Positions 1,580 to 34,260 of a stretch of 34,260 nucleotides of DNA are shown in pieces; position 1 is the stretch's first letter, and each line of letters starts with the position of its first letter. The position numbers were made by a program, and so were the translations under genes. Under the pieces are notes generated by a model. It was not told the origin of the DNA. It did no database searches and worked only from the letters and a program-made list of their open reading frames with translations. Source of the DNA: Alloascoidea hylecoeti (Eukaryota); the NCBI GenBank assembly GCA_001600815.1, contig BCKZ01000009.1:708194-742453 (forward strand). Direction: 5' to 3'.

Positions 1580-2434
1580 TCATAAACCTCTACGTTGATT
1601 TTCATTGTAAAGTTGTCCTTTTCTAAAATTTAATTCAAACAACTTTTTGTTCTCTTCTGTTCCAAAAATTAAACCAATTTCTATCTCTCTAGTTCTGGTA
1701 ATCGTGCATCTTTGATACACATATTCTTCATCTAGATTTAAAGATTCAGGTAAGTTAAAATCATCAGAAAATGAGTCTTTCAATTTATATTCTGGCTGAA
1801 TTGTATGGGTTATTAATGCTTCGTTGCTGGAAATATTAAGCGAATTCGAAGCTGAAACTGGAAATATTGAAATAAAACTTTCATTTTGAAGACCATTCAT
1901 AACACCATGGGAAATTTGTATCTTACAAGTTATGGGAGTCGACCATTTGTGTGGTTGTTTTGGTTCATTATGTATCAATAATTTTGCTCTTATTTCGAAA
2001 TCTACTTTTATATCTTGATAATATCCATTCGTTGATATTTTTTCAAAGTCACCGATGGGATTCGACCATTGTTGTGGTTGTTTTGAATCATTTTGAATCA
2101 AAGCTTTCGCTTNTTGAGTTTCATAATCTGTACATGTTGATTTTTTATCAGAGTCATCGATGTTTTCGTATTGCGGTGGGTTTCTTCGATTCTTTTTATC
2201 AGAGTCATCGATGTTTTCGTATTGCGGTGGGTTGCTTCGATTCTTTTTATCAGAGTCATCGATGTTTTCGTACTGCGGTGGGTTGCTTCGATTCTTTTTA
2301 TAATTCATAATTGATTTGAAAACATTAGTAACTGATTTTTTCCAACTGTTTCTAGTACCGTAATTATGTTCTGGTGAAGTTTGTTCAGCCTTCTTATCTT
2401 CATCAAGTACTGAAATCAAATGCTTTTTGTCCAT
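1580..2434 (-). CDS. Divergent RanBP1/Yrb1-like (PH-fold) domain protein, long form with PPxY repeats (copy A; may be degenerate)
   Basis: 284-aa ORF. The motifs FEIRAKLL..W, THTIQPEYKLK, YVY and IGLIFGTEENKKLFELNFRKGQ parallel recalled Yrb1 ([45 protein letters not shown]). Versus the 31767 copy it has a 14-codon deletion and a frameshifted C-terminus. One N at 2113. Confidence 0.6.
   Translation of the reverse strand: MDKKHLISVLDEDKKAEQTSPEHNYGTRNSWKKSVTNVFKSIMNYKKNRSNPPQYENIDDSDKKNRSNPPQYENIDDSDKKNRRNPPQYENIDDSDKKSTCTDYETQXAKALIQNDSKQPQQWSNPIGDFEKISTNGYYQDIKVDFEIRAKLLIHNEPKQPHKWSTPITCKIQISHGVMNGLQNESFISIFPVSASNSLNISSNEALITHTIQPEYKLKDSFSDDFNLPESLNLDEEYVYQRCTITRTREIEIGLIFGTEENKKLFELNFRKGQLYNENQRRGL
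2142..2301 (-). repeat. 51-bp coding tandem repeat x3 (KKNRSNPPQYENIDDSD)
   Basis: Three near-identical 51-nt units visible in DNA and protein. Confidence 0.95.
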
Positions 2435-3599
2435 GATAAAATTATTATATTAATTACTTGCGATTATGTTAAAGAAAAAGAGCTTGAGTGAAAATAATTT
2501 GTTTTTTTAACGAGAAGGTATAAGAAACCATGTGGAAACTTTAAACAGTGCATAATTATAACAATTGCTGGATGTAAGATAGCAATATTGAACTTCACTG
2601 ATATCCCAATACATCAATTGCATGTTTATGATTATATTTTTAGTAAGTAGTAGTTATTAAATTTGAATGTGCTGCTTTTTACGTGGTCCAAGACTATAGC
2701 TACGTGATACAGTAATTATGTTGTTGTTATGGTATAATTCCTTCTATTATGCTAAATATTATAGGTAGATATAGAGATGTGTTCAGCGTGCACATTCTAC
2801 ATATCCTTATTAATTATTCATTTTAAATTTGGAATTTTAACTTCCAACATTACAATTTCTAAAGTTTCCTATATTTCCATTTTCATTATTAATTTTCATT
2901 TTTCATTATTTCTTTAAATTTAATTAATTAAAATACCTTTAATTGTTTTGGATTTGATGCACTTTCTTCAATTGCTCCCCAAAAGTTTCTAAACTATATC
3001 CCAATCATTTAAATTTTGATTAGTTAATAAATTATCACCATCAAAAAAAAAAAATAATTAAATTAAAAACTTACTGTTTTCTTTCTTTCATTATATATTT
3101 TAATTAATTTCATTTGTCTATCAATAAGCTTTGTTAAATATTCTTTAGAAGTTAATTCATCACCTCCATTATCAAACTCTTCAATTTTTGGTTCTAACAT
3201 TTTTTTAAATTGTTCGTTGTTGGGAATGATAAGATTTCACATTGTGCTATAATATTAATAACATTTGAATATACTTACTTGTTTTCAATTCACCAAAAGA
3301 TAAAGAAATCTCTTTTTCTTTTTCTTTTAATTTCTCAATTCTATCATTTAATTCTTCAACATGCCAATCTTACCTTTGTAACAACATAAAACGTTTGTTT
3401 CTCACAATTCTTTTTAAATGTAGTTTCCCCGATGATTAAAATGATTCTAAAACTTTAACAGATGTTGCTTTATTTATTGTATTATCAAGATGTAATATTA
3501 TATCTAAAACTGAATATGGAAAATTTTGTTTTTTTAAATAATCAAAGATTGTATTTTCAGTTATTTTGAAATATTAGTACTAAATGTTTCTTTGATATA

Positions 3600-3860
3600 C
3601 CGTCAGGTCTGTAGATACCGGATGGTACTATGATTCCAGACACAACATAATTGATATTTTCAACCACCATTTTCTTAACCAAAAACTAATATAAATTAAA
3701 TTTAATACAATTACCAAGATCTATTTAATCTGGTAAATTCTGATAATGATTTTTCAATATACACTTTTTGTGTTTTCTGTTATGGAGTGGGATCTTTTCT
3801 CCGACTTAGAGTATTTAGGTTATTAGAGTCAGTAGCACCAGTCTTTCAACATAATTTTCG
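3600..3860 (+). repeat. Left terminal inverted repeat
   Basis: Reverse complement of about 5180-5415; high identity over about 3623-3807, weaker inward. Confidence 0.85.
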
Positions 3861-4055
3861 GTATCTATTATTAGCTGGAAAATTTTTATTTGGGTATATA
3901 CTAGAATTAGTTTATGGGACGTACTGTCGTAAGGCGCGAGAAATAGGGTGGGATGGTTTGAGGAATTATGACCAGCCATCCCAAAACGCGATAATCGGGA
4001 GCATATAAAAGTACTTTGTCTTTCAATTGTCACCAAGCCTCCATAATAAGTCCAG

Positions 4056-5249
4056 ATGACTCGTACAGGATCTGTGCAGAATTAGAATGAGCTTCAGAAT
4101 ATGTTAGTCAACGCGGCTGTCGATTATAAGCGAAAACACATGAATCAGTCGTTCCGGAAGGTTTCTAAAAAATCTCTGTTCCAAGATCAACTTTAAACGA
4201 ACGTTTCAATAGTTCATCATTGCAAAAGGATTCCTACATTTCTCAAATGGTTCTGACTCCCCTTGAAGAGCAGGAGCTTGCTCGGAGGTTGTTGTTTTTC
4301 TCGTTTGTCGAATGCGTGTGTGCCGATGGTTCCAGAACTGCTCCACTCATTATATTTAAAAAAAAGGAGGATGATGATGTCTCACCTGCTTGGGTAACTG
4401 ATAATGAAGATAGGACACGAAAGAATTGGGTATTTACATGTTCCGGTTCTGGTTATATAAATGGAGATTTGATGTTAAGATGGTTACACGAATTATTTTT
4501 ACCCCATATTGCGTACGAAAAAGGACACATTATTTTATTAGACAGGCATTCTAGTAATATTTCATTTAGACTAGTTATGGAATTTATTAAATATAATAGT
4601 CGACTCTTTATATTGCCTGCGCACACTAGCCAATTGACGCAGGTATTAGACGTCTCTTGTTTTGGTCCTTTTAAAAAGAGGTTGAAAAACATCTATGACG
4701 AAATCCTAGTAGATAAACCCAACAATCATAGAGCACAAAAAGGAGAATTCATTGAAATATATAAAAAGGCCAGATTTGATCCAATAACAGCTAGAAATAT
4801 TCGTTCTGGTTATAAGGCAACTGGAATATACCCATTTGAGCCAGAGAAGATTTTATCGAAACTTGGAGAAGTTTGGGTGGAAGAAAAAACGAAAAAATCC
4901 GAGAGAAATTTCATTTTATATGAAGATTTGGAGGGAGAATTAAAATACGGAACGTTTGTGAACGAAGCTCACGAAACGATGTTGGAAAGGCTGAAAATAT
5001 ATGTATCGGAGGATGAATTTCGTATTTGGAAGAATTGGCTTGGGGTGCAAACAGGCTTTATTATCAAATACATCCACCAATACTCTTGAAGATCCCTTAA
5101 AAGCTATCCGGAGTGGACTTAAGACTTCTAAGAGGGGGAAAGCACTCATAACACATAATTCCTCTGAGATAACGAAGAGAAATGCTTGTCGTGAGATTGG
5201 TGCTGATGAGCTGAATACACCAAGTCGGAGAAAATATCTCACTCCATAA
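4056..5249 (+). pseudogene. DDE_1 (CENP-B/pogo-like) transposase pseudogene
   Basis: HTH-like SFRKVSKK/SVPRSTLNER...LTPLEEQEL, then VECVCADG..PLIIFK, SGYIN..L..WL, ILLLDRHSS, LPAHTSQLTQVLDVSCFGPFKK, GYKATGIYPFEP. It has a stop and frameshifts, and an internal deletion removes the second HTH and the first catalytic Asp (DETG) region. Confidence 0.9.
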
Positions 5250-5415
5250 TAGAAAACGCAAAAAGTGTATATTGAAAAATCATTATCAGAATTTACCAGA
5301 TTAAATAGATTTTAGTAATAGTATTAAATTTAATTTATATTAGTTTTTGGTTAAGAAAATGGTGGTTGAAAATATCAATTATGCTGTGTCCGGAATCCTA
5401 GTACCGTTCTGACGG
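5180..5415 (-). repeat. Right terminal inverted repeat
   Basis: Inverted match to 3600-3860. Confidence 0.85.
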
Positions 5416-6019
5416 TACATGTATATATGTATAACTTCAGAAATATCTAAGTTTTTTGGATGCCATTTTTAAATGTCAAATAAAATTTAAAGGGATGGGA
5501 AAAGAAAGGAGGTGAGGTGCAGCTAATTATCTACTACTAATATTAAACCGTTATATAGTGAATATTACCCTGTTAGATCTGGAACCTATATATATATATA
5601 TTGTTTTGATGATACCAAGAGTGTTGGTATAAAAATATCATTCTTATGATGGAGGTGATCGTTGAAGGTTAATTCCTGAAGGAAATCCAGTAAGTATTTT
5701 CAAGTTGTTCTTAGTTTTCTTCTGTTAAATAATTGAGATTCTTGGAATCTTACTTTTTTCCATTCTTAAAATTTTACTTTGGAGAGAGAAGTTCGGTATT
5801 ACTAACATACAAGCAAGTAGCCATAGTCAATAATGGATATAAGTTTTATTAACAACCAGTTAAATGTATTATGAGGTTACAATTTTCAATTCCGTTGCAT
5901 GGTATATCAAGAATCACCAAAACTTTAATCCTTCTTCTACTTTTTTTCTTTGGTCAAAGATCTCACAAAAAGGTCTTTTCATATCATTTGAAGCCTGTAA
6001 TTAATTGATAATATATATT

Positions 6020-6799
6020 ATGTCCTTCATAAGTAGGACTTCAATAAAACCTCGGTTGCTTTACATCTGGTTTCTCCACTAGCGATTACCCTTAAACCTC
6101 AATAGAACTTATTATCTTTCATAGATGATGGTATATTGGCCTTAGTCGTTCCTATAATTGCATATTGGTATTATTCTTCTCTTTTTTATTTAATTGATGT
6201 TAAAGATTGGTGGCCCCAGTACAGAATTCGTCCCCAGAAGAAATTGCAAAGAGGAACAAAGTTAGCTTGAATTCAGTCATCGCTGAGGTTATTTCTCAAC
6301 ATATAATACAAACATTAGCCAGACTGATACCCGATGACTGGAATGGAGATTTTTGAAATGTAAGAAATTAAACAAAGGTTCCCGGTGGTTTCAGATAATA
6401 TCATATATGTTTGGTATTATTTCATTCTTTCCGCCATTAGAACCTTCGCGCACTTTTACCTTCATTGATTCCTGGCAGTACTTTTTACATTGTTTAATAT
6501 TAATGCAAACAACCGGATTTCTTTGTAAGCATTTGCACTCCGTTCATCATCGTCTTTATGTTCCATACGCATATGGCGCTTTATATAATCATCCATTGGA
6601 AGGTTTTTTGTTGGATACTTTAGGAAGTGGCCTAGCTTCAATGACAATAGGCCTCACACCTCGGGAGTGCCTATTTCTCTATCCTTTTGCAAAATTGAAA
6701 ACAGTCGATGATCATTGTGGATATTCTTTACCATTAGATCTATTTCGAAAGTTATTCCCCAGTAATGCAGTTTATCACGATCTTCATCTTTTGATCTGA
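6020..6799 (+). pseudogene. SUR2: Sphingolipid C4-hydroxylase (SUR2-like) pseudogene
   Basis: DGILALVVPIIAYW..YRI/EEIAKRNKVS..QHIIQT, DSWQYFLH, HSVHHRLYVPYAYGALYNHPLEG, KTVDDHCGYSLP, NAVYHDLH. It has a stop and frameshifts and is truncated within the last His box. Confidence 0.88.
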
Positions 6800-7121: not shown

Positions 7122-7545
7122 AGTTTCAAGTAATGAACTCAGTGAAGTCGATCAAGAAGATTAGAAGGAAGTCATGATTAAGGGAAATAATGATGATACA
7201 GTTGAATTTGATGGCATTATAATTTATTTTCCTGTATTTGGCGGTGAACAAGATCAATATATCCAACAAGACCTGAAGTAATATATATCTCTACTATATG
7301 TAGTCTATAGAAATTTAACACTCAAATTATTGGTAGATCGCCAGAGAAAGACGTTGAAGGATTGAGTCATCTTAATATCCAAATATGTACCACAACATTA
7401 GATACTTAGACAAAGAAGAGAAACAAACAAGTCTATTTCTTTGTCTTTGGTCGAGATACTTGAGCATCCTGGAATCTACAACTCTTTTTGATTCCCTACG
7501 GTAATATTAATATGTTCTATGGAAAGACCATTACTATACCTTTAA
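7122..7545 (+). pseudogene. MTD1: NAD-dependent methylenetetrahydrofolate dehydrogenase (MTD1-like) fragment
   Basis: GNNDDTVEFDGIIIYFPVFGGEQDQYIQQ ... SPEKDVEGLSHLNIQ/NMYHNIRYLDKEEK ... LVEILEHPGIYN ... PYGN..FYGK, compared with recalled Mtd1 NGIMVYFPVFGNAQDQYLQQVVCKEKDVEGLNHVYYQNLYHNVRYLDKE. Stops, frameshifts and an intron-sized gap are present. Confidence 0.85.
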
Positions 7546-7554
7546 AATAATAGA

Positions 7555-7880
7555 AAAAGAAGATGAGTCTTTTAATTTATATTGTTAATTTATTTTGGAT
7601 GAATTGTATGGCTTGCTAATGATTTGCTATTGACATGAGTTTTGACCGAAGCTGAATGTGTCACAGGATATATTGAAAGAAAACTTTCTCTTTGAAAAGT
7701 AATTAAGTGGGAACCACAGTAAAATGCTACCTCACAAACTATGGGATTCGACCATTTTTGGGGTTGTTTTGAATTATTTTGAATCAATACTTTTGCTCTC
7801 TTTTTGATTAACATATATGTTTTTCTTTTTGAAAGGAGCTGAGATTACCATGATCAATTACTGAAATCAAAATGAGCTTA
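7555..7880 (-). pseudogene. Divergent RanBP1-like family fragment (copy B)
   Basis: LISVIDH..., RAKVLIQNNSKQPQKWSNPIVC...ESFLSIYPV...SLASHTIHPK*, then YKLKDSSS. A clear paralog of 1580-2434 and 32998-33621, truncated. Confidence 0.8.
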
Positions 7881-8000
7881 GTAAGGAGGAGTTATAAATT
7901 TCAATATGTTGAAAATGTGCTTGTAGTTGGTCGTGTTGTTATGGTACTGGTAAATATTCTAGGTACGGATACAATTATAGAGCTATACATGTAACTTATA

Positions 8001-11000
8001 TTATTTATTTATCTTATTTACTGCAATCCCAATTTTATTGTACAGGAACCGCTTACTTGCCTCGTCTGGAATAGGAATAAACGGACCTTGTTTGCCCCCC
8101 TTAAGCCCTATCGTTATTCCTCCCTTTTCCAGCGTAATACTCCGGATTTGAGGGTAGCTAATAACCCATCGGGTGTTCATTTTCCCAAGAGAAACAAGCA
8201 TCAATCGTCTAAAAGTGACGATAATCGCCTTTTCGTCTCCTGGTAAACAAACATGCGCAATATACTCCTCTTCCTTTGCGAAATTCCCACCATTTACGGT
8301 CTTCAACCAAAATTGGCCCTGCGCTTCCCGGTGGGAATAAGGTTTGATAACCCCATCGTGGCCCACATATCTTGTTAAGCGAACCCGCTCTAATGCTCCT
8401 TGGTCAAAAACAGTCGTTGTGTTGCGAACTCCTTCACTAACACTAGATGCCATATCTAGCAGCCCAATGGCGGTTTTAGTAGGTAACCCAATAACACCTT
8501 TACCTAATCCTTTGAAAAACCCAGCGGCTCCTTCTTCTGCAACCCCCCGCATTGGACTTAATGCTATCCCAGCAATACCACTAGCTAAATTTTCTGCAAA
8601 TGATGTGGCTCCTTGTGTTATCCCATATAACGCATGTACTGGCCGGTTTCGATTTTGAACCAACCTTCTCTTTTCTTGATATCGCTTATCCATAGTTGCA
8701 ACAGATAATCCTTTAGCTGCACTACCCGTTAATCTAGAGATACTATCTGAAATCCCAAAGACAGATTTCTTAACAAAACTCAATCCCCCTTTAGCCAATC
8801 CAATCCCTAGTTCTTGTGGTCTATCATTCATTATAAATCCCTGATATGGTTGATAAAAAATATCCATTACTCCCGAACTAATATTACTAAATAAACCAAC
8901 GGGATTCCCAATAAAATCAGCTGATCCCAATATTTTATGGACCTGATAAATCGATTCTTGTGAATAATGTGTTGTAATTGATTGTAGCAATATAGGTATT
9001 GGAACCTTAACATTTTCCATAAATAATGCGTTTAATCGAACAGGTGCATCATTAATATTACCGATTGCCATTGAAAACATATCAAAAATAAAAATTAATG
9101 GTCCTGAGATACTTGATAATGATAAAAATTGAATATTATCAGAATTAACTGCATGAGTCCTCATAAATGATAAATCTATTTGAATCGGCTGAATATGTAA
9201 TGCTTCAAAATATATATTTAACCCATTTGATGTTTTTAAAGGTTCAGGAATAACTAAATTTTCAAAATTTGGCAACGATTCATCTTCAATTTTTTGTTTT
9301 GTGAAAAATGATCCTGTTTGTGATGCAAATTCAATCAATGCTAATAAAAAATCTTCATCTAAATCAAGCGCCATTTCTTGTAATAAAATCGTAGCATATT
9401 TAACAAATATAACTCCATGACTTTCATCCTTAACAATTGAAATTGACGATGAAATACATGGATGTAAATCCATACTTTTTCCATTTTTGGGTATAATTGT
9501 TGGATATAAAACAATTGGATAAATTCCATTAAATAACTGATTATCAATTTGTAACCATTTTAATTTAATACTATAATTTTGATAAATTTTTGATTCAATA
9601 TATTTTAACTCTGTTCCTTTTAAGGTAATATAACATAATTCTTTTAAATTTGAATTTATAATCGATATGCCAATTGTTTCAAAATTAATTAAAAATCGTG
9701 TCTTAATTGGATCATCGCTGTCATCAATTTCAAATTGTTCATTGTCAATACTCGATGCTAAGCTTTTATTTGACGATCTATACTGTTCAGTCAATTGATA
9801 TAAATTAAATTCTGAATTATATTCTGATATATATAATATTTGAACGGATCCTTCAACAGAAACATTAAATTCTAATATTTTCATTGCTCCTTTTGAATCG
9901 ATACATTTCATTGGTAATAAAGTACCGATTTCCGCAAGTTGAATCCTTCTTTTACTTTTTCCAATTTGTAAAATTAATTCCTTTTTACTAGATGCTGGAT
10001 AATCCCATGAATATGACATTGAACTTTTACCAGGTACCATATATTTAATCGGTTTATAATTATGTTTTAATGCTAATGTTGAATTTGAATTTGAATTTGA
10101 ACTTGAACTTGAATCTAAAATTGAATCGCTTTGATAATAAATTATATCAATATCACTATAATTTCGAATTGAATATGGCCATTGATCTTTTGCATCTTCA
10201 ATATGTATAAACAATGTTGCATCTTCTAATAACACATTAATTAATAATAATGTTGTTATAATTCTTTTAGATTGTGGCAATTGTCTTCGAACACGTAAAT
10301 ATGTTTTGCCAATATCATTAATACTAAATGCCGATGACCATATGATTTTTGATTTATTTGGATTATTATTTTTATTTGTTGGAAATCCTAAAAATATTGT
10401 TTTTTCTTTTGTTGATCTTATAAATTTTAATGACATTAAATCATTTGGATCCAAAATAAATGGTTCATTATCATCATCATTATTTTCAACGATATGAATT
10501 GTTTCACTTAATTTATTCTTCAAAACAAATCTTGGTGATATAGTAACCATTTTAGAAAATCTATAAATTCCAACACCCTCATTAACGGAAACCCCTGCAT
10601 TTATTTCTCTTTGCTTTGTTGATGAGTTCATTGCAACGTTGAAAGAACTACCAATTGCATCTAAACTGATTGGTTTACTCCATTCTGAATCGCCAACTTT
10701 TAGTAATGCTCGTCTATTTGTATCATTAACATCAAACGAAAACATGCTGGGTAATGCTTTTTTAATACTACCATTTGTTTCAGTATCATAAATTGATGAA
10801 ACTTTAGAAACAAGTGTATTATTATTTCTTGTTGCATTTCTTGCTAAATTCTTATTACTTGTTAATTTTAATTCTAAACCAGTTTTATTTAAAATTAAAA
10901 ATGGTGAACTGATATAAATCTTGATACCACGTCCTTCCTTTTCGTTTGTTTCATAGTTTAATCTAATGGTCAATTTTTGACCAGTTTCATTATTTTCAGT

Positions 11001-28321: not shown

Positions 28322-29689
28322 TTATAGGAAAAGAACAGATAAACCTGCAATAACACTAAAACCTGCAAATAAAACACTATTCCCATTTGAATTCATAACA
28401 GCACCACCAGTAGAAGTAGCAGTTGCTGAAGCACCACTTGTACCAGAAGCAGAAGAACCACTTCCAGATCCTTGAGTTTTAACAACAACAATTAAAGTTG
28501 TATCTTCACCACTTCCGGATCCTTTAATAACTGAAGTCTTTGTGGCTTCTTTTGTTGTTGCAGCATTACTTGTTGTTTCTCTAACAATTACTAAAGTTGT
28601 TAAATCTTCACCAGTTCCTAAAACTGAAGTTTTTGTTGTTTTACCGACTGTTGCTTCATCAGAAGATTTATGTTTTGTTGTTGTTTCAGTAACTTTTGAA
28701 CCATTTGTTGTTTTAACGACAACAACGGTTGTTTCTTCTTCATCAGAACTAGATTTTGATTTTGTTGCAGCAGTTGTAATTGTAGAAGAAATAACAGAAC
28801 CATTTGTTGTTTTAACGACAACAACGGTTGTTTCTTCTTCATCAGAACTTGATTTTGTGGCAGTAGCTGCAGAAGTAATTGTAGAAGAAATAACAGAACC
28901 ATTTGTTGTTTTAACGACAACAACGGTTGTTTCTTCTTCATCAGAACTAGTTTTTGTGGCAGCGGCAGAGGTAATGGTTGAAGAAATAACAGAACCGTCA
29001 GAGGTTGTAACGACAACAACGGTGGTAGCTTCATCAGAGGCAGAATTTGTGCTTGTAGCAGCGGCAGAAATGGTACTAGTGGAGGAAGAAACTGAACCGT
29101 CTGATTGTGTAACGACAACAACGGTAGTAGAATCACCAGAAGAAGAAGTTTCAGCGTTTGAAGCGGATTCGGTATTTGTAACACCTCTATCACCATTGGT
29201 AGTTGCTTCTTCGGAAACTTGGGTGGTAGCGGCGGTAGTAACCTGGGTGGTAGCTGCTTCGGTGGTAGTAGCTTCAGTGGTGGTCTGGGTAGTTGCAACG
29301 GTGGTAGCTTCAGTAGTGGCGGTAGTAGCCTGAGTAGTAGCTTCGGTGGTAGCCTGGGTGGTAGCCTGGGTGGTAGCAACAGAAGTAGTTTCAACGGCAG
29401 TAGCAGTGTTTGTTGCAACAGAAGTAGCCGCACCTTCGGCAGTTGTAGGATTGACATAAATGGTGGAAGTGGCAGCAGCACCACCACCATAAATAAGGGT
29501 AGGGACGATAGTTGTAGAAGTATAGGTGGTAATGGCGCCATTGTTGGAAGAGATCAAGAGATTGATGTAAGTGAGGTAATCAGTCGAGATGGCCAAACCA
29601 ATGTAGGAGGTGTAAGTGACGACCACAGCGTTAACGGAAGAAGCCAAAAGGGCGGCGACCGCGAGGGAAGAAGAACGAGAGAGTTTCAT
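28322..29689 (-). CDS. Secreted GPI-anchored Ser/Thr-rich cell-wall protein or adhesin-like protein
   Basis: Signal peptide MKLSRSSSLAVAALLASSVNA, Thr/Ser-rich body with repeats, C-terminal hydrophobic GPI signal, TATATAAA at 29754-29761. Confidence 0.9.
   Translation of the reverse strand: MKLSRSSSLAVAALLASSVNAVVVTYTSYIGLAISTDYLTYINLLISSNNGAITTYTSTTIVPTLIYGGGAAATSTIYVNPTTAEGAATSVATNTATAVETTSVATTQATTQATTEATTQATTATTEATTVATTQTTTEATTTEAATTQVTTAATTQVSEEATTNGDRGVTNTESASNAETSSSGDSTTVVVVTQSDGSVSSSTSTISAAATSTNSASDEATTVVVVTTSDGSVISSTITSAAATKTSSDEEETTVVVVKTTNGSVISSTITSAATATKSSSDEEETTVVVVKTTNGSVISSTITTAATKSKSSSDEEETTVVVVKTTNGSKVTETTTKHKSSDEATVGKTTKTSVLGTGEDLTTLVIVRETTSNAATTKEATKTSVIKGSGSGEDTTLIVVVKTQGSGSGSSASGTSGASATATSTGGAVMNSNGNSVLFAGFSVIAGLSVLFL
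28690..29140 (-). repeat. About 99-bp coding tandem repeat (SSDEEETTVVVVKTTNGSVISSTITSAATATKS), about 5 units
   Basis: Identical anchors at 28702, 28801 and 28900, plus two more diverged units upstream. Confidence 0.9.
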
Positions 29690-30530: not shown

Positions 30531-31360
30531 CTACTTTGGAATTTTAACCTCCAAAATTACAATGTCCAAAGTTTGCTATATTTTCGAATTCATTATTAAT
30601 TAAAATCTTCCATTTTTACCTTAATTTAATTAAAATATGCTTACCTTTAATTGTTTTCCAATTAAATTACATGAATTATCACCGTCAAACACAAATAATT
30701 AAATTAAAAACTTACTTTTCCCTTTCTTTCATTATATATTTTATTTAATTTTATTTGCTTAACTTTTATCAATAATCTTTGTTATTTCTTTCTTCTTTTG
30801 AAATTAATTCATCTCCTCGTTATTATTATTATTAAATGTTTTAAGTTTTGCGTTTAGAATTTTATTTTTTCTTGTTCGTTGTTGGTGATGATGATAAGAG
30901 TTCACATTGTTGTATAATATTTAATTAATATAATATAATATTAACAATATAATAAATTAAAATGATAACATTTGGATATACTTACTTGTTTTGAGTTCAC
31001 CAAAAGATAAAGAAATTTCTTTTTCTCTTTCTTTTAATTTCTCAATTTTATCATTTAATTCTTCAACAGAAGGACAGCCATCTAAATTATCTGGCTAAAA
31101 ACCTTAAATTTTATTAATAATATGATACCTGTGTAGCAATATAAAACGTTTGTTTACCATAAGTTTTCCTGCTGAGTGTAATGATTCTAAAACTTTAACA
31201 AATGTTGCTTTATTTATTGTATTATGAAGATTTATAATTATGTCGGAAACTGAATATGAACGATTTTGTTTTTTTAAATAATCAAAGATTGTATTTTTGA
31301 AATATTAGTATGCATATTCATTTCTAAGTATTTATGTATAACTTCAGAAATATCTAATTT
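30531..31360 (-). pseudogene. HOP2: HOP2 pseudogene (copy 2), no transposon insertion
   Basis: IFDYLKKQNRSYSVSDIIINLHNTINKATFVKVLESLHSAGK/TYGKQTFYIATQ resembles Hop2 (DYL..QNRPYS..DI..NLH...TFGK). It carries a frameshifting deletion and has lost most of the penultimate exon. Confidence 0.85.
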
Positions 31361-31394
31361 TTAATTTTTACACATACATGTATGATAATGATTA

Positions 31395-31666
31395 ACAAAA
31401 TAAAGATTTTTGACATCTCAGAAAATATTGAAATGAGACTTTTTAGTGATTTTACAGTAATTGAGCAAAAAAAATGCATCTCCTCATTTAGCAAGAATAT
31501 CACAGAGAAATCCTTTATCAGTTGATGATTTGATCAGTTATAAATACTATGCTCATGAATCCGGTCAAAAGGTTAATGCTTATGTTCTGGATACTGGTTT
31601 CAATTTTGATAATCCGGAATTTGAAGGAAGAGGTCATTTTGGTGCTGATTTCACTGGTGATGGACC
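31395..31666 (+). pseudogene. Subtilisin-like (S8, proteinase K/Prb1-type) protease fragment, cut by an assembly gap
   Basis: NASPHLARISQR...YKY....GQKVNAYVLDTG...PEFEGR..FGADF (catalytic Asp motif). A +1 frameshift lies in the A8 run near 31467, and no N-terminus is seen. Confidence 0.8.
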
Positions 31667-31766: not shown

Positions 31767-32368
31767 AAGCGAAAGCTTTGATTCAAAATGATTCAAAACA
31801 ACCACAACAATGGTCGAATCCCATCGGTGACTTTGAAAAAATATCAACGAATGGATATTATCAAGATATAAAAGTAGATTTCGAAATGAGAGCAAAAGTA
31901 TTGATACAAAATGAACCAAAACAACCACACAAATGGTCGACTCCCATAACTTGTAAGATACAAATTACCCATGGTGTTATGAATGGTCTTCAAAATGAAA
32001 GTTATATTTCAATATTTCCAGTTTCAGCTTCAAATTCGCTTAATATTTCCAGCAACGAAGCATTAATAACCCATACAATTCAGCCAGAATATAAATTGAA
32101 AGACTCATTTTCTGATTATTTTAAGTTACCTGAGTCTTTAAATCTAGATGAAGAATATGTGTATCAAAGATACACGATTACTAGAACTAGAGATATTAGC
32201 AGAGCTATTTATCTAGAAAATTGTGAACTTTTGTCGATAGAAATTGGTTTAATTTTTGGAACAGAAGAGAACAAAAAGTTGTTTGAATTAAATTTCAGAA
32301 AAGGTCAACTTTACAATGAAAATCAACGTAGAGGTAAAATGTATGAAGATTGGATTTTTTTATCTTAA
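31767..32368 (+). CDS. Divergent RanBP1-like family protein (copy C), 5' end lost in the gap
   Basis: Open frame nearly identical to copy A, without copy A's deletion and C-terminal frameshift. Confidence 0.7.
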
Positions 32369-32997: not shown

Positions 32998-33621
32998 TCA
33001 AAAAAAACAATTTTGATATCTCGTATCCCTACGCTGATCTTCATTGTAAAGTTGTCCTTTTTTAAAATTTAATTCAAACAACTTTTTGTTCTCTTCTGTT
33101 TCAAAAACAAAACCAAATTTTACTGACAAAAGTTGATCACGATTTTCTAGATAAAATGTTCTGCGAATGTCTGTAGTTCTAGTAATCGTGTATCTTTGAT
33201 ACACATATTCTTCATCTAGATTTAAAGAGTCATGTAAATTAAAATCTTCAGAAGATGAGTCTTTTAATTTATATTCAGGCTGAATTGTGTGGAGAGCTAA
33301 TGATTTGTAATCGGCATTAGTGTAGACTAACCTCGAAGCTGGAACTGAAAATATTTCAAGATAACTTTCACGTTCAAAAGTAGTTGGGTGGATACCATGG
33401 TAAAATTCTACCTTACAAACTGTGGGGTTCGACCATTTTTGTGGCTGTTTTGGATCATTCTGAATCAAAATNTTTGCTCTCATTGTGAAAACTAGTTCTT
33501 GATTTTTATAATATGCCCCTTCCAAATTGCCATCTGTGGGTATATTATAATTAGGTTCTAGTGAAGTTCGTTCGGCCTTCTTATCTTGATCAATTATCGA
33601 AATCAAATGCTTTTTGTCCAT
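32998..33621 (-). CDS. Divergent RanBP1-like family protein, short form (copy D, 207 aa)
   Basis: Complete ORF MDKKHLIS...ELVFTMRAXIL..KW...ALHTIQPEYKLK...YVY...TTDI...KFGFVFETEENKKLFELNFKKGQ. One N at 33472. Confidence 0.72.
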   Translation of the reverse strand: MDKKHLISIIDQDKKAERTSLEPNYNIPTDGNLEGAYYKNQELVFTMRAXILIQNDPKQPQKWSNPTVCKVEFYHGIHPTTFERESYLEIFSVPASRLVYTNADYKSLALHTIQPEYKLKDSSSEDFNLHDSLNLDEEYVYQRYTITRTTDIRRTFYLENRDQLLSVKFGFVFETEENKKLFELNFKKGQLYNEDQRRDTRYQNCFF

Positions 33622-33985: not shown

Positions 33986-34260
33986 TCATTTTAAATTTGG
34001 AATTTTAACCTCCAACATTACAATTTCTAAAGTTTCCTATATTTCCATTTTCATTATTAATTTTTATTTTTCATTATTCCCTTAAATTTAATTAATTAAA
34101 ATATGCTTACCTTTAATTGTTTTGGATTTGGTGCACTTTCTTCAACTGCTCCCCAAAAGTTTTTAAACTATATCCCAATCATTTAAATTTTGATTAGTTC
34201 ATAAATTATCACCATCAAAAAAAAAAATAAAAAATAATTAAATTGAAAACTTACTGTTTT
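33986..34260 (-). CDS. HOP2: HOP2 3' exons (copy 3; visible exons intact, gene continues beyond the window)
   Basis: Exon 34167-34111 (FKNFWGAVEESAPNPKQLK) and exon 34036-33986 (ETLEIVMLEVKIPNLK*) have canonical GTAAG/AG sites. The next donor is at 34254. Confidence 0.6.

Follow-up and report, generated by a model that had tools for sequence, protein, structure and literature searches.

A yeast gene in Alloascoidea hylecoeti encodes a protein whose N-terminal tail carries three PPQY motifs. The question raised by this locus is what such a tail does, and whether the gene and a shorter, motif-free paralog could differ in ubiquitin-dependent fate as the poison and antidote of the fission yeast wtf drivers do. 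The window, i.e., the whole stretch of DNA analyzed, comprises 34,260 nt (GCA_001600815.1, BCKZ01000009.1:708,194-742,453, forward strand) of a 24.8-Mb genome of low GC content in which introns are present. The members of the gene family found in the window (copies A to D) and the parts of copy A are the following:

1580..2434, minus strand: copy A, an intronless open reading frame (ORF) of 284 aa with an N-terminal tail and a diverged Yrb1/RanBP1-like domain
1583..2029, minus strand: RanBD/PH-fold domain of A, with the Ran-binding motifs lost
1932..2111, minus strand: in-frame internal duplication of 41 aa by which the start of the domain is doubled (2055-2111 versus 1932-1978, 85%), common to A and C
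2113, no strand: the first base of codon 108, unread; the codon is K, Q, E or, with one of the four bases, the stop TAA
2142..2301, minus strand: in-frame tandem repeat of 3.1 x 51 bp (TRF, 98% matched)
2270-2281, 2219-2230 and 2168-2179, minus strand: PPQY motifs of A, at aa 52, 69 and 86, with lysine pairs on both sides
7542..7814, minus strand: copy B, a truncated piece of the family, immediately downstream of an ORF of 2971 aa, which we take to be VPS13-like
31767..32368, plus strand: copy C, an open frame and sister of A, with its 5' end inside a 100-N gap
32998..33621, minus strand: copy D, 207 aa, a short form produced by an N-terminal deletion, without PY motif, tail to tail with C

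The domain of A begins at about aa 137, and all the PPQY motifs precede the folded part. Copies A and C are close: among 189 residues compared, 166 were identical and 178 similar or identical. They differ in a methionine at the domain start, present in C and lost in A, and in the C terminus, which is shorter in A after a 5-bp deletion (frameshift) near 1585. The domain of A also shows an in-frame 14-aa loop deletion near 1685. A distance of 30 kb separates A from D, which is a gene of its own; in the common domain, 87 of 148 residues (59%) are identical between the two. A single N in D (33472) lies in a codon that reads K or N whichever base is present, never a stop. Neither A nor D has a transmembrane segment, the highest 19-aa Kyte-Doolittle mean being 0.64 and 0.34, respectively.

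Both TRF and the translation confirmed that A contains three 17-aa repeats, each with PPQY and nearby lysines, and PPQY is a canonical PY motif, as the original prediction had it. The repeat pattern, searched in the assembled genome with up to 2 mismatches, occurred at no place besides the three in A. In the long ORFs of the examined loci of this genome, PPxY was found at 7 of 37,573 positions, a background of about 2% per 100 aa. The three motifs have one origin followed by tandem duplication and are not three independent gains. In copy C17, the single unit is bordered on both sides by a 10-bp microhomology, at which slippage can explain the triplication, and copy C7_803 has its own tandem duplication of the same region. 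The triplication is thus explicable without selection.

With A as the query, 38 matches were found in the genome, a number that should not be read as copies. The family tree consists of two clades. Clade I, the older relatives, includes three intact genes and one split gene, whereas clade II (20 rows, star-like tree) includes A, B, C, D and copies dispersed in the genome. One older relative matched yeast Yrb1 with an E value of 5e-8, and a profile of 13 family sequences did so with 3.7e-8. Scored with a profile of 23 canonical RanBP1 proteins, A obtained 11.4 bits and C 9.1 bits, values reached by 0 of 300 shuffles, and D obtained 3.9 bits, reached by 1 of 300. Three of the older relatives scored 26, 19.5 and 15 bits with PF00638, the cut-off of which is 23.2 bits; a Pfam scan of A, C and D (E<=1) gave no Ran_BP1 match. 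Copy E as a lone query retrieved no Yrb1 among PDB sequences, and BLASTP of the A domain against one Yrb1 yielded no alignment. Since these single-sequence searches miss Yrb1, the ancestry rests on the profiles and on the older relatives.

Structural models agree with this ancestry. An AF2 model of C, built from an alignment without any Yrb1 row and weak (pLDDT 43), placed Yrb1 chains at Foldseek ranks 1 to 25 (E 0.05-0.35). The model of the A domain (pLDDT 76.9), for which the comparison is partly circular because its alignment included Yrb1 rows, matched Yrb1 at Z 14.2 (rmsd 2.6 over 119 residues), in a tie with a Homer EVH1 domain (Z 14.0). Aligned to Yrb1, A retains the invariant Trp, His and Phe and the C-terminal helix. 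Of the three conserved RBD motifs defined in PMC7229160, motif 1 is partial in A, motif 2 is reduced to its Trp and motif 3 to its His, suggesting that Ran binding was lost. A and D are soluble offshoots of Yrb1/RanBP1 without its Ran-binding motifs, an ancestry that the original prediction did not name. Canonical YRB1, YRB2-like and NUP2-like genes persist in the genome. Two introns interrupt the domain in the YRB1 gene, whereas the family reads through both sites. An RNA-mediated origin is thereby suggested, provided that the introns predate the family. The family therefore shares with Yrb1/RanBP1 (PF00638; PDB 3m1i_B and 4gpt_B) homologous sequence and the PH-like RanBD fold but is intronless, multicopy and fast evolving, and a PY-bearing tail, found in A and the older relatives, was seen in 0 of 56 short canonical RanBP1 proteins. 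The genome also has two Ran genes (L114 on contig C20 and L115 on contig C3) and a second intron-bearing Yrb1 paralog (L066, G000:C1:1323273-1323617), which stands behind a long acidic repetitive N terminus and breaks at about the two YRB1 intron positions.

The PY motifs are unevenly distributed among the clades. All four clade-I proteins start with Met-Gly and carry PPPY near residue 15; the Met-Gly start with a nearby Cys or Ser is presumably an acylation signal. In clade II, the PY site was covered by 9 of the 20 copies examined (a count that excludes C, whose 5' end lies within the gap, F, B and three fragments), and PxY was present in A alone. The other eight show RPPN, QRRY, stop-PLD, RPRN, RPQN, PPLN, RPLN and RLRN; the motif is absent from all of them, an outcome that the original prediction had named as refuting it, although all eight are broken genes. 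The further claim that the motif separates long from short forms holds among open genes, where A has it and D and E lack it, and fails across the family (1 of 9). One of the eight copies has Pro at motif position 1 and one has Tyr at position 4, which by a rough count gives a chance of about 13% for a gain in one of nine lineages.

Fifteen copies have both a start and the domain, and only A, D and E are open from the ATG through the domain; all 12 dispersed copies are broken by loss of the ATG, stops or frameshifts. The sequences indicate that the long N terminus with a single unit is ancestral and that D lost it by deletion. The shared start of A and D was confirmed (19 of the first 25 residues are identical), as was the lack of [LP]PxY in D, but A does not have an insert relative to D: it is D that deleted an ancestral unit. 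The short forms (D, E, C9_562, C21_348, C21_232 and C28) arose by separate deletions with different ends. Counted by eye, 11 of 17 copies have the internal methionine at the domain start, a level of retention not above that expected from drift. At informative sites, C has the clade-I base in 14 of 20 cases, compared with 54 of 144 in dispersed copies (P = 0.003), and A in 10 of 17 (P = 0.06). A basal branching of A and C was not rejected (AU test, P = 0.11); A and C may thus branch first, in which case PPQY would have been retained instead of gained. The tails of clades I and II never aligned above shuffles (16 of 16 pairs), and homology of PPPY and PPQY is therefore not established. Inversions or inverted duplications are found inside two family copies, at L059/L061 (contig C13) and L046/L054 (contig C19). 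The clade-I gene on contig C10 is flanked by two identical ORF fragments separated by 4.3 kb (L035:3350-3757 and 7642-8049), either a tandem duplication or a collapsed assembly. An apparent 2278-aa open frame at locus L008 was discarded, as it is actually a run of N.

Although most copies of clade II are broken, their substitutions bear the mark of coding. With the stops expected from the observed substitution spectrum, and with B dropped as a sister, 14 dispersed copies showed 11 stops versus 35.9 expected (P = 1e-6), the C and D lineages 0 versus 8.9 (P = 1e-4) and the A/C lineage 0 versus about 4. This deficit was confined to the coding frame, the five other frames being at expectation. Among 155 well-covered codons, 21 were invariant (5.1 expected) and 27 hypervariable, i.e., changed in at least 45% of the lineages (11.9 expected); each excess was reached in 0 of 200 simulations. 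Hidden common ancestry could inflate this codon heterogeneity, but not the frame-specific stop deficit. Together, the two results indicate that clade II was protein coding through most of its history, with a core that was held and one fast-changing region. Core codons 31 to 76, a region picked post hoc, have a dN/dS of about 2.1 (1.9 if shared states count once), to be read against a neutral baseline of the method slightly above 1. The domain dN/dS against the majority consensus was 1.79 for A, 1.13 for C, 0.95 for D, 0.81 for E and 1.24 for 15 dispersed copies pooled, values near 1 that by themselves look neutral, with A and C no lower than the dispersed copies; pairs of clade-I genes gave 0.27, 0.60 and 0.74. 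Undisrupted cores were found in 6 of 17 lineages (4.5 expected), which makes intactness by itself weak evidence. The comparison of in-frame and frameshift indels in the cores gave P = 0.06; a version of this test with P = 0.005 was set aside, since it mixed regions and selected intact lineages after the fact.

The open copies of the family cluster within about 50 kb, in a region with repeated copies of HOP2, a meiotic gene that is normally single copy. The following features belong to it in the window:

2860..5578 (low end approximate), minus strand: broken HOP2 copy directly upstream of A, with a TBPIP match at 3406-3558 and one stop
3600..5415, plus strand: DDE_1 DNA transposon with inverted repeats of about 200 bp and TA on both sides, sitting in the HOP2 copy of A
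30670..31369, minus strand: second decayed HOP2 copy, with a TBPIP match at 31155-31295
34040..34260 (low end approximate), minus strand: upstream of D, the 3' end of one more HOP2 copy

The first exon of the copy upstream of A lies near 5422-5578. The transposon, presumably pogo/Fot1-like, has a transposase ORF of 280 aa (4247-5089) that looks truncated. Copies A, D, E, F and one on contig C5 each stand directly behind a HOP2 copy. Genome-wide there are 4 TBPIP matches, all in the HOP2 block or in the small contig C85, which ends inside the block. Other HOP2 winged-helix matches (G000:C5:1240126-1240305 and C85:1718-1897) share 99% identity and look intact over their assembled parts. Between copies D, F and E, which are spaced by 7.5 to 8 kb, lie long N runs directly beyond the window (G000:C9 742454-748783 and 751491-755900); the array may hold additional copies. 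In copies E and F, a HOP2 exon contains an insert of about 480 bp (L031:7840-8330 and L032:6125-6556) that is bounded by 10-bp direct repeats and has a short coiled-coil ORF running in the opposite direction. Copy E sits in a rearranged block, with one half of a subtilisin gene on either side. Near E, this gene for a subtilisin-like protease is in pieces, in part duplicated or inverted (L032:3901-7230; L128:1-1100; window 31369-31666), and contig C85 carries a near-complete subtilisin-like copy adjoining HOP2. The dispersed copies lack HOP2 and have about 200 to 450 bp of upstream DNA with ragged ends, which indicates copying at the DNA level following the intronless origin. In the parts of the flank alignments inspected by eye, the dispersed copies had no terminal repeats, target duplications or poly(A) in common. 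One family copy adjoins a gene that we take to be GDI1-like (L011), and another adjoins a decayed duplicate of the 3' end of that gene (L012), suggesting that flanking DNA was copied along.

Two Rsp5-type ligase genes with three WW matches each (L135 on contig C2 and L138 on contig C31) and with a HECT-like C terminus, recognized by eye, were found in the genome, so that the ligase anticipated by the original prediction is available. PY motifs bind the WW domains of Rsp5/NEDD4, and several of them act redundantly (PMC10721834). Our leading reading, which is tentative and which we hold at a little less than an even chance, is that the PPQY motifs give A, an adaptor-like protein, a functional tail for docking on Rsp5. 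It builds on the motif, the fold, the ligase genes and the coding selection, all of them observed, and reaches beyond them to binding, expression and cargo. A is one of the few members still open in a lineage-specific family derived from Yrb1/RanBP1, and its tail holds a single 17-aa PPQY unit that was triplicated in frame, probably by slippage at the microhomology. PPQY would bind the WW domains of one of the two Rsp5 ligases, with three motifs facing three WW domains and providing avidity. A would then act as an Rsp5 adaptor or substrate: its fast-evolving domain would hold a partner, probably no longer Ran, and its tail would recruit the ligase, a role that PPPY would also have in the older relatives. 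D is a separate paralog that became PY-less by deletion, and would not be the cognate poison of A. The presence of PPPY in 4 of 4 older relatives, compared with 0 of 56 canonical RanBP1 proteins, counts for a use of PY in the family. In contrast, the 5-bp frameshift, the 14-aa deletion and the 41-aa duplication of A and the transposon upstream of it are signs of possible decay and count against the docking tail, as do the domain dN/dS of A and C and the absence of PxY from the eight other copies. Like the PY-motif adaptors of Rsp5, A combines PY motifs in a likely disordered tail with a folded recognition domain. The alpha-arrestins (ARTs), which are PY-motif adaptors of Rsp5, have an arrestin fold, whereas the folded part of A is RanBD/PH-like.

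Close behind the docking tail ranks the possibility, somewhat less probable in our judgment, that the motif is incidental, having arisen from an RPxN-type word through two neutral substitutions and been multiplied by slippage with no selected role, A being a duplicate that is relaxed or dying and neighbors a broken copy of HOP2. The RPxN-like words in most of the eight other copies fit such an origin, as do the microhomology in C17, the independent duplication in C7_803, a dN/dS around 1, the several lesions of A and a chance of gain that we roughly place at 2 to 13%, but the PPPY of all four older relatives and the stop-free A/C lineage are at odds with it, and the outgroup bases of C (14/20 versus 54/144) suggest that PY may be retained (AU P = 0.11). 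A different doubt comes from the N at 2113, which could conceal a stop or mark a collapse of A and C alleles, in which case the PY tail and the domain would not be one protein. One base in four would indeed give TAA, the contig of C starts exactly one base after the N of A, and the whole repeat-plus-N stretch is spanned by no single contig among those listed. However, contigs of three studies cross 2113 free of gaps in runs X2 (2072-2193), X3 (2072-2171; possibly the sample behind the assembly) and X4 (2071-2171), which rules out that the N joins unrelated contigs, a case that the original prediction had considered. The homologous codon elsewhere is a sense codon one change away from the Lys reading, and the frame downstream is stop free where about 4 stops would be expected; we therefore regard an artifact or pseudogene of this kind as very unlikely. 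Single Ns are frequent in neighboring collapsed copies too, and an X2 contig over 2215-2331 contains two PPQY motifs in tandem. In X2 and X4, the read depth of 2072-2171, which ends in the last Tyr, was about the sum of the depths of the A-specific and C-specific contigs; this was less so in X3 and not the case in X1. The 3' flank of A had about half the depth of that of C in X2 and X4. Since depth is not copy number, these values only hint that C shares the motif or that A is polymorphic.

The idea closest to the original prediction is that of a poison and antidote, or of a driver and suppressor, which we consider unlikely. PY-less D, E, F or a short form of C would be toxic to spores, and long PY forms (A and probably C) would neutralize them via Rsp5; unlinked PY-less copies would die, and the HOP2-linked cluster would persist. 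In the most far-reaching version, C could supply both products from one gene by means of the domain-start methionine, A would be an antidote-only suppressor, and the cluster, amplified behind HOP2, would have converged on the wtf ubiquitin switch from an unrelated fold. The birth-and-death pattern (a star-like tree of 20 rows, lesions in all 12 dispersed copies and open ones clustered in about 50 kb), the stop deficit combined with hypervariable codons (including the post hoc region of codons 31-76 with dN/dS of about 2.1), the tail-to-tail arrangement of C and D and the position of open copies behind a meiotic gene would all suit such a system. The family also resembles wtf in being dispersed and multicopy, with many dead copies, coding-sequence repeats and long and short forms, and A in having three PY motifs in an N-terminal tail. 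The poison and antidote of wtf are, however, multi-transmembrane products of one gene (PMC10721834), differing only at the N terminus, whereas A and D are separate diverged genes without transmembrane segments, and PY is found in only 1 of the 9 family copies covering the site. Moreover, wtf antidotes neutralize only identical or highly similar poisons (PMC11892871), and A and D share just 87 of 148 domain residues, so that A and D do not stand as a wtf-like pair. A complex prediction for the A domain and D scored 0.00 (alignment not used, partner fold uncertain) and carries no weight here. No wtf family was matched in the Pfam scan of A, C and D (E<=1), the homology being to Yrb1 instead. The long form ancestral to the burst apparently had no PY, and many unlinked copies nevertheless remained coding during much of their history, a poor fit to a lethal unprotected poison, and the internal methionine (11 of 17 copies) is within drift. 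As C keeps the domain-start methionine, it would be the better single-gene candidate, if such a system exists.

A tie between the Ran pathway and drive has a precedent, since Sd-RanGAP is a Drosophila driver from this pathway. Fast-evolving, high-turnover duplicates of nuclear-transport genes have arisen recurrently in Drosophila and are linked to drive (PMC8645118), a parallel that adds to the case for a driver. Like those retroduplicates, the family described here is composed of intronless, fast-evolving, high-turnover Ran-pathway duplicates with pseudogenes; unlike them, it is derived from RanBP1, has lost the Ran-binding motifs and apparently later spread at the DNA level.

Relatives in other species were not found in the databases searched, which does not prove their absence. 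Searches at near-full length retrieved 4 + 4 NCBI proteins, all identical or near-identical to copies of this genome. A profile search of 1.84 billion representatives gave 10 matches, namely, 8 family pieces and 2 repetitive false positives. No member was found in viral or metagenome contigs, and the ESM Atlas had nothing at or above 0.9. Among the literature matches listed (titles and beginnings of abstracts, with partial coverage), no PY-bearing RanBD family was described. Both the RanBD and the PY-Rsp5 mechanism are known, and it is their combination in an expanded yeast family that was found neither in this literature nor in other species. Ran-binding domains are highly conserved, and here about two dozen copies evolve fast, two branches of them with putative Rsp5-docking motifs. 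If the docking tail is real, the RanBD would be a new scaffold for ubiquitin-ligase adaptors. A held frame and core with one fast region is also what genetic conflict typically leaves. Should toxicity and PY-dependent rescue be demonstrated, the family would parallel the wtf ubiquitin switch in a budding yeast, starting from an unrelated protein, and would tie the Ran pathway to drive outside flies.

Two other ORFs of the window deserve mention. One (28322-29689) encodes a Ser/Thr-rich protein of 455 aa, secreted or of GPI type, with 99-bp tandem repeats and nothing above the cut-off in Pfam. The other (6407-6799) encodes a 130-aa piece of a fatty-acid/sphingolipid hydroxylase (PF04116), probably a partial duplicate.
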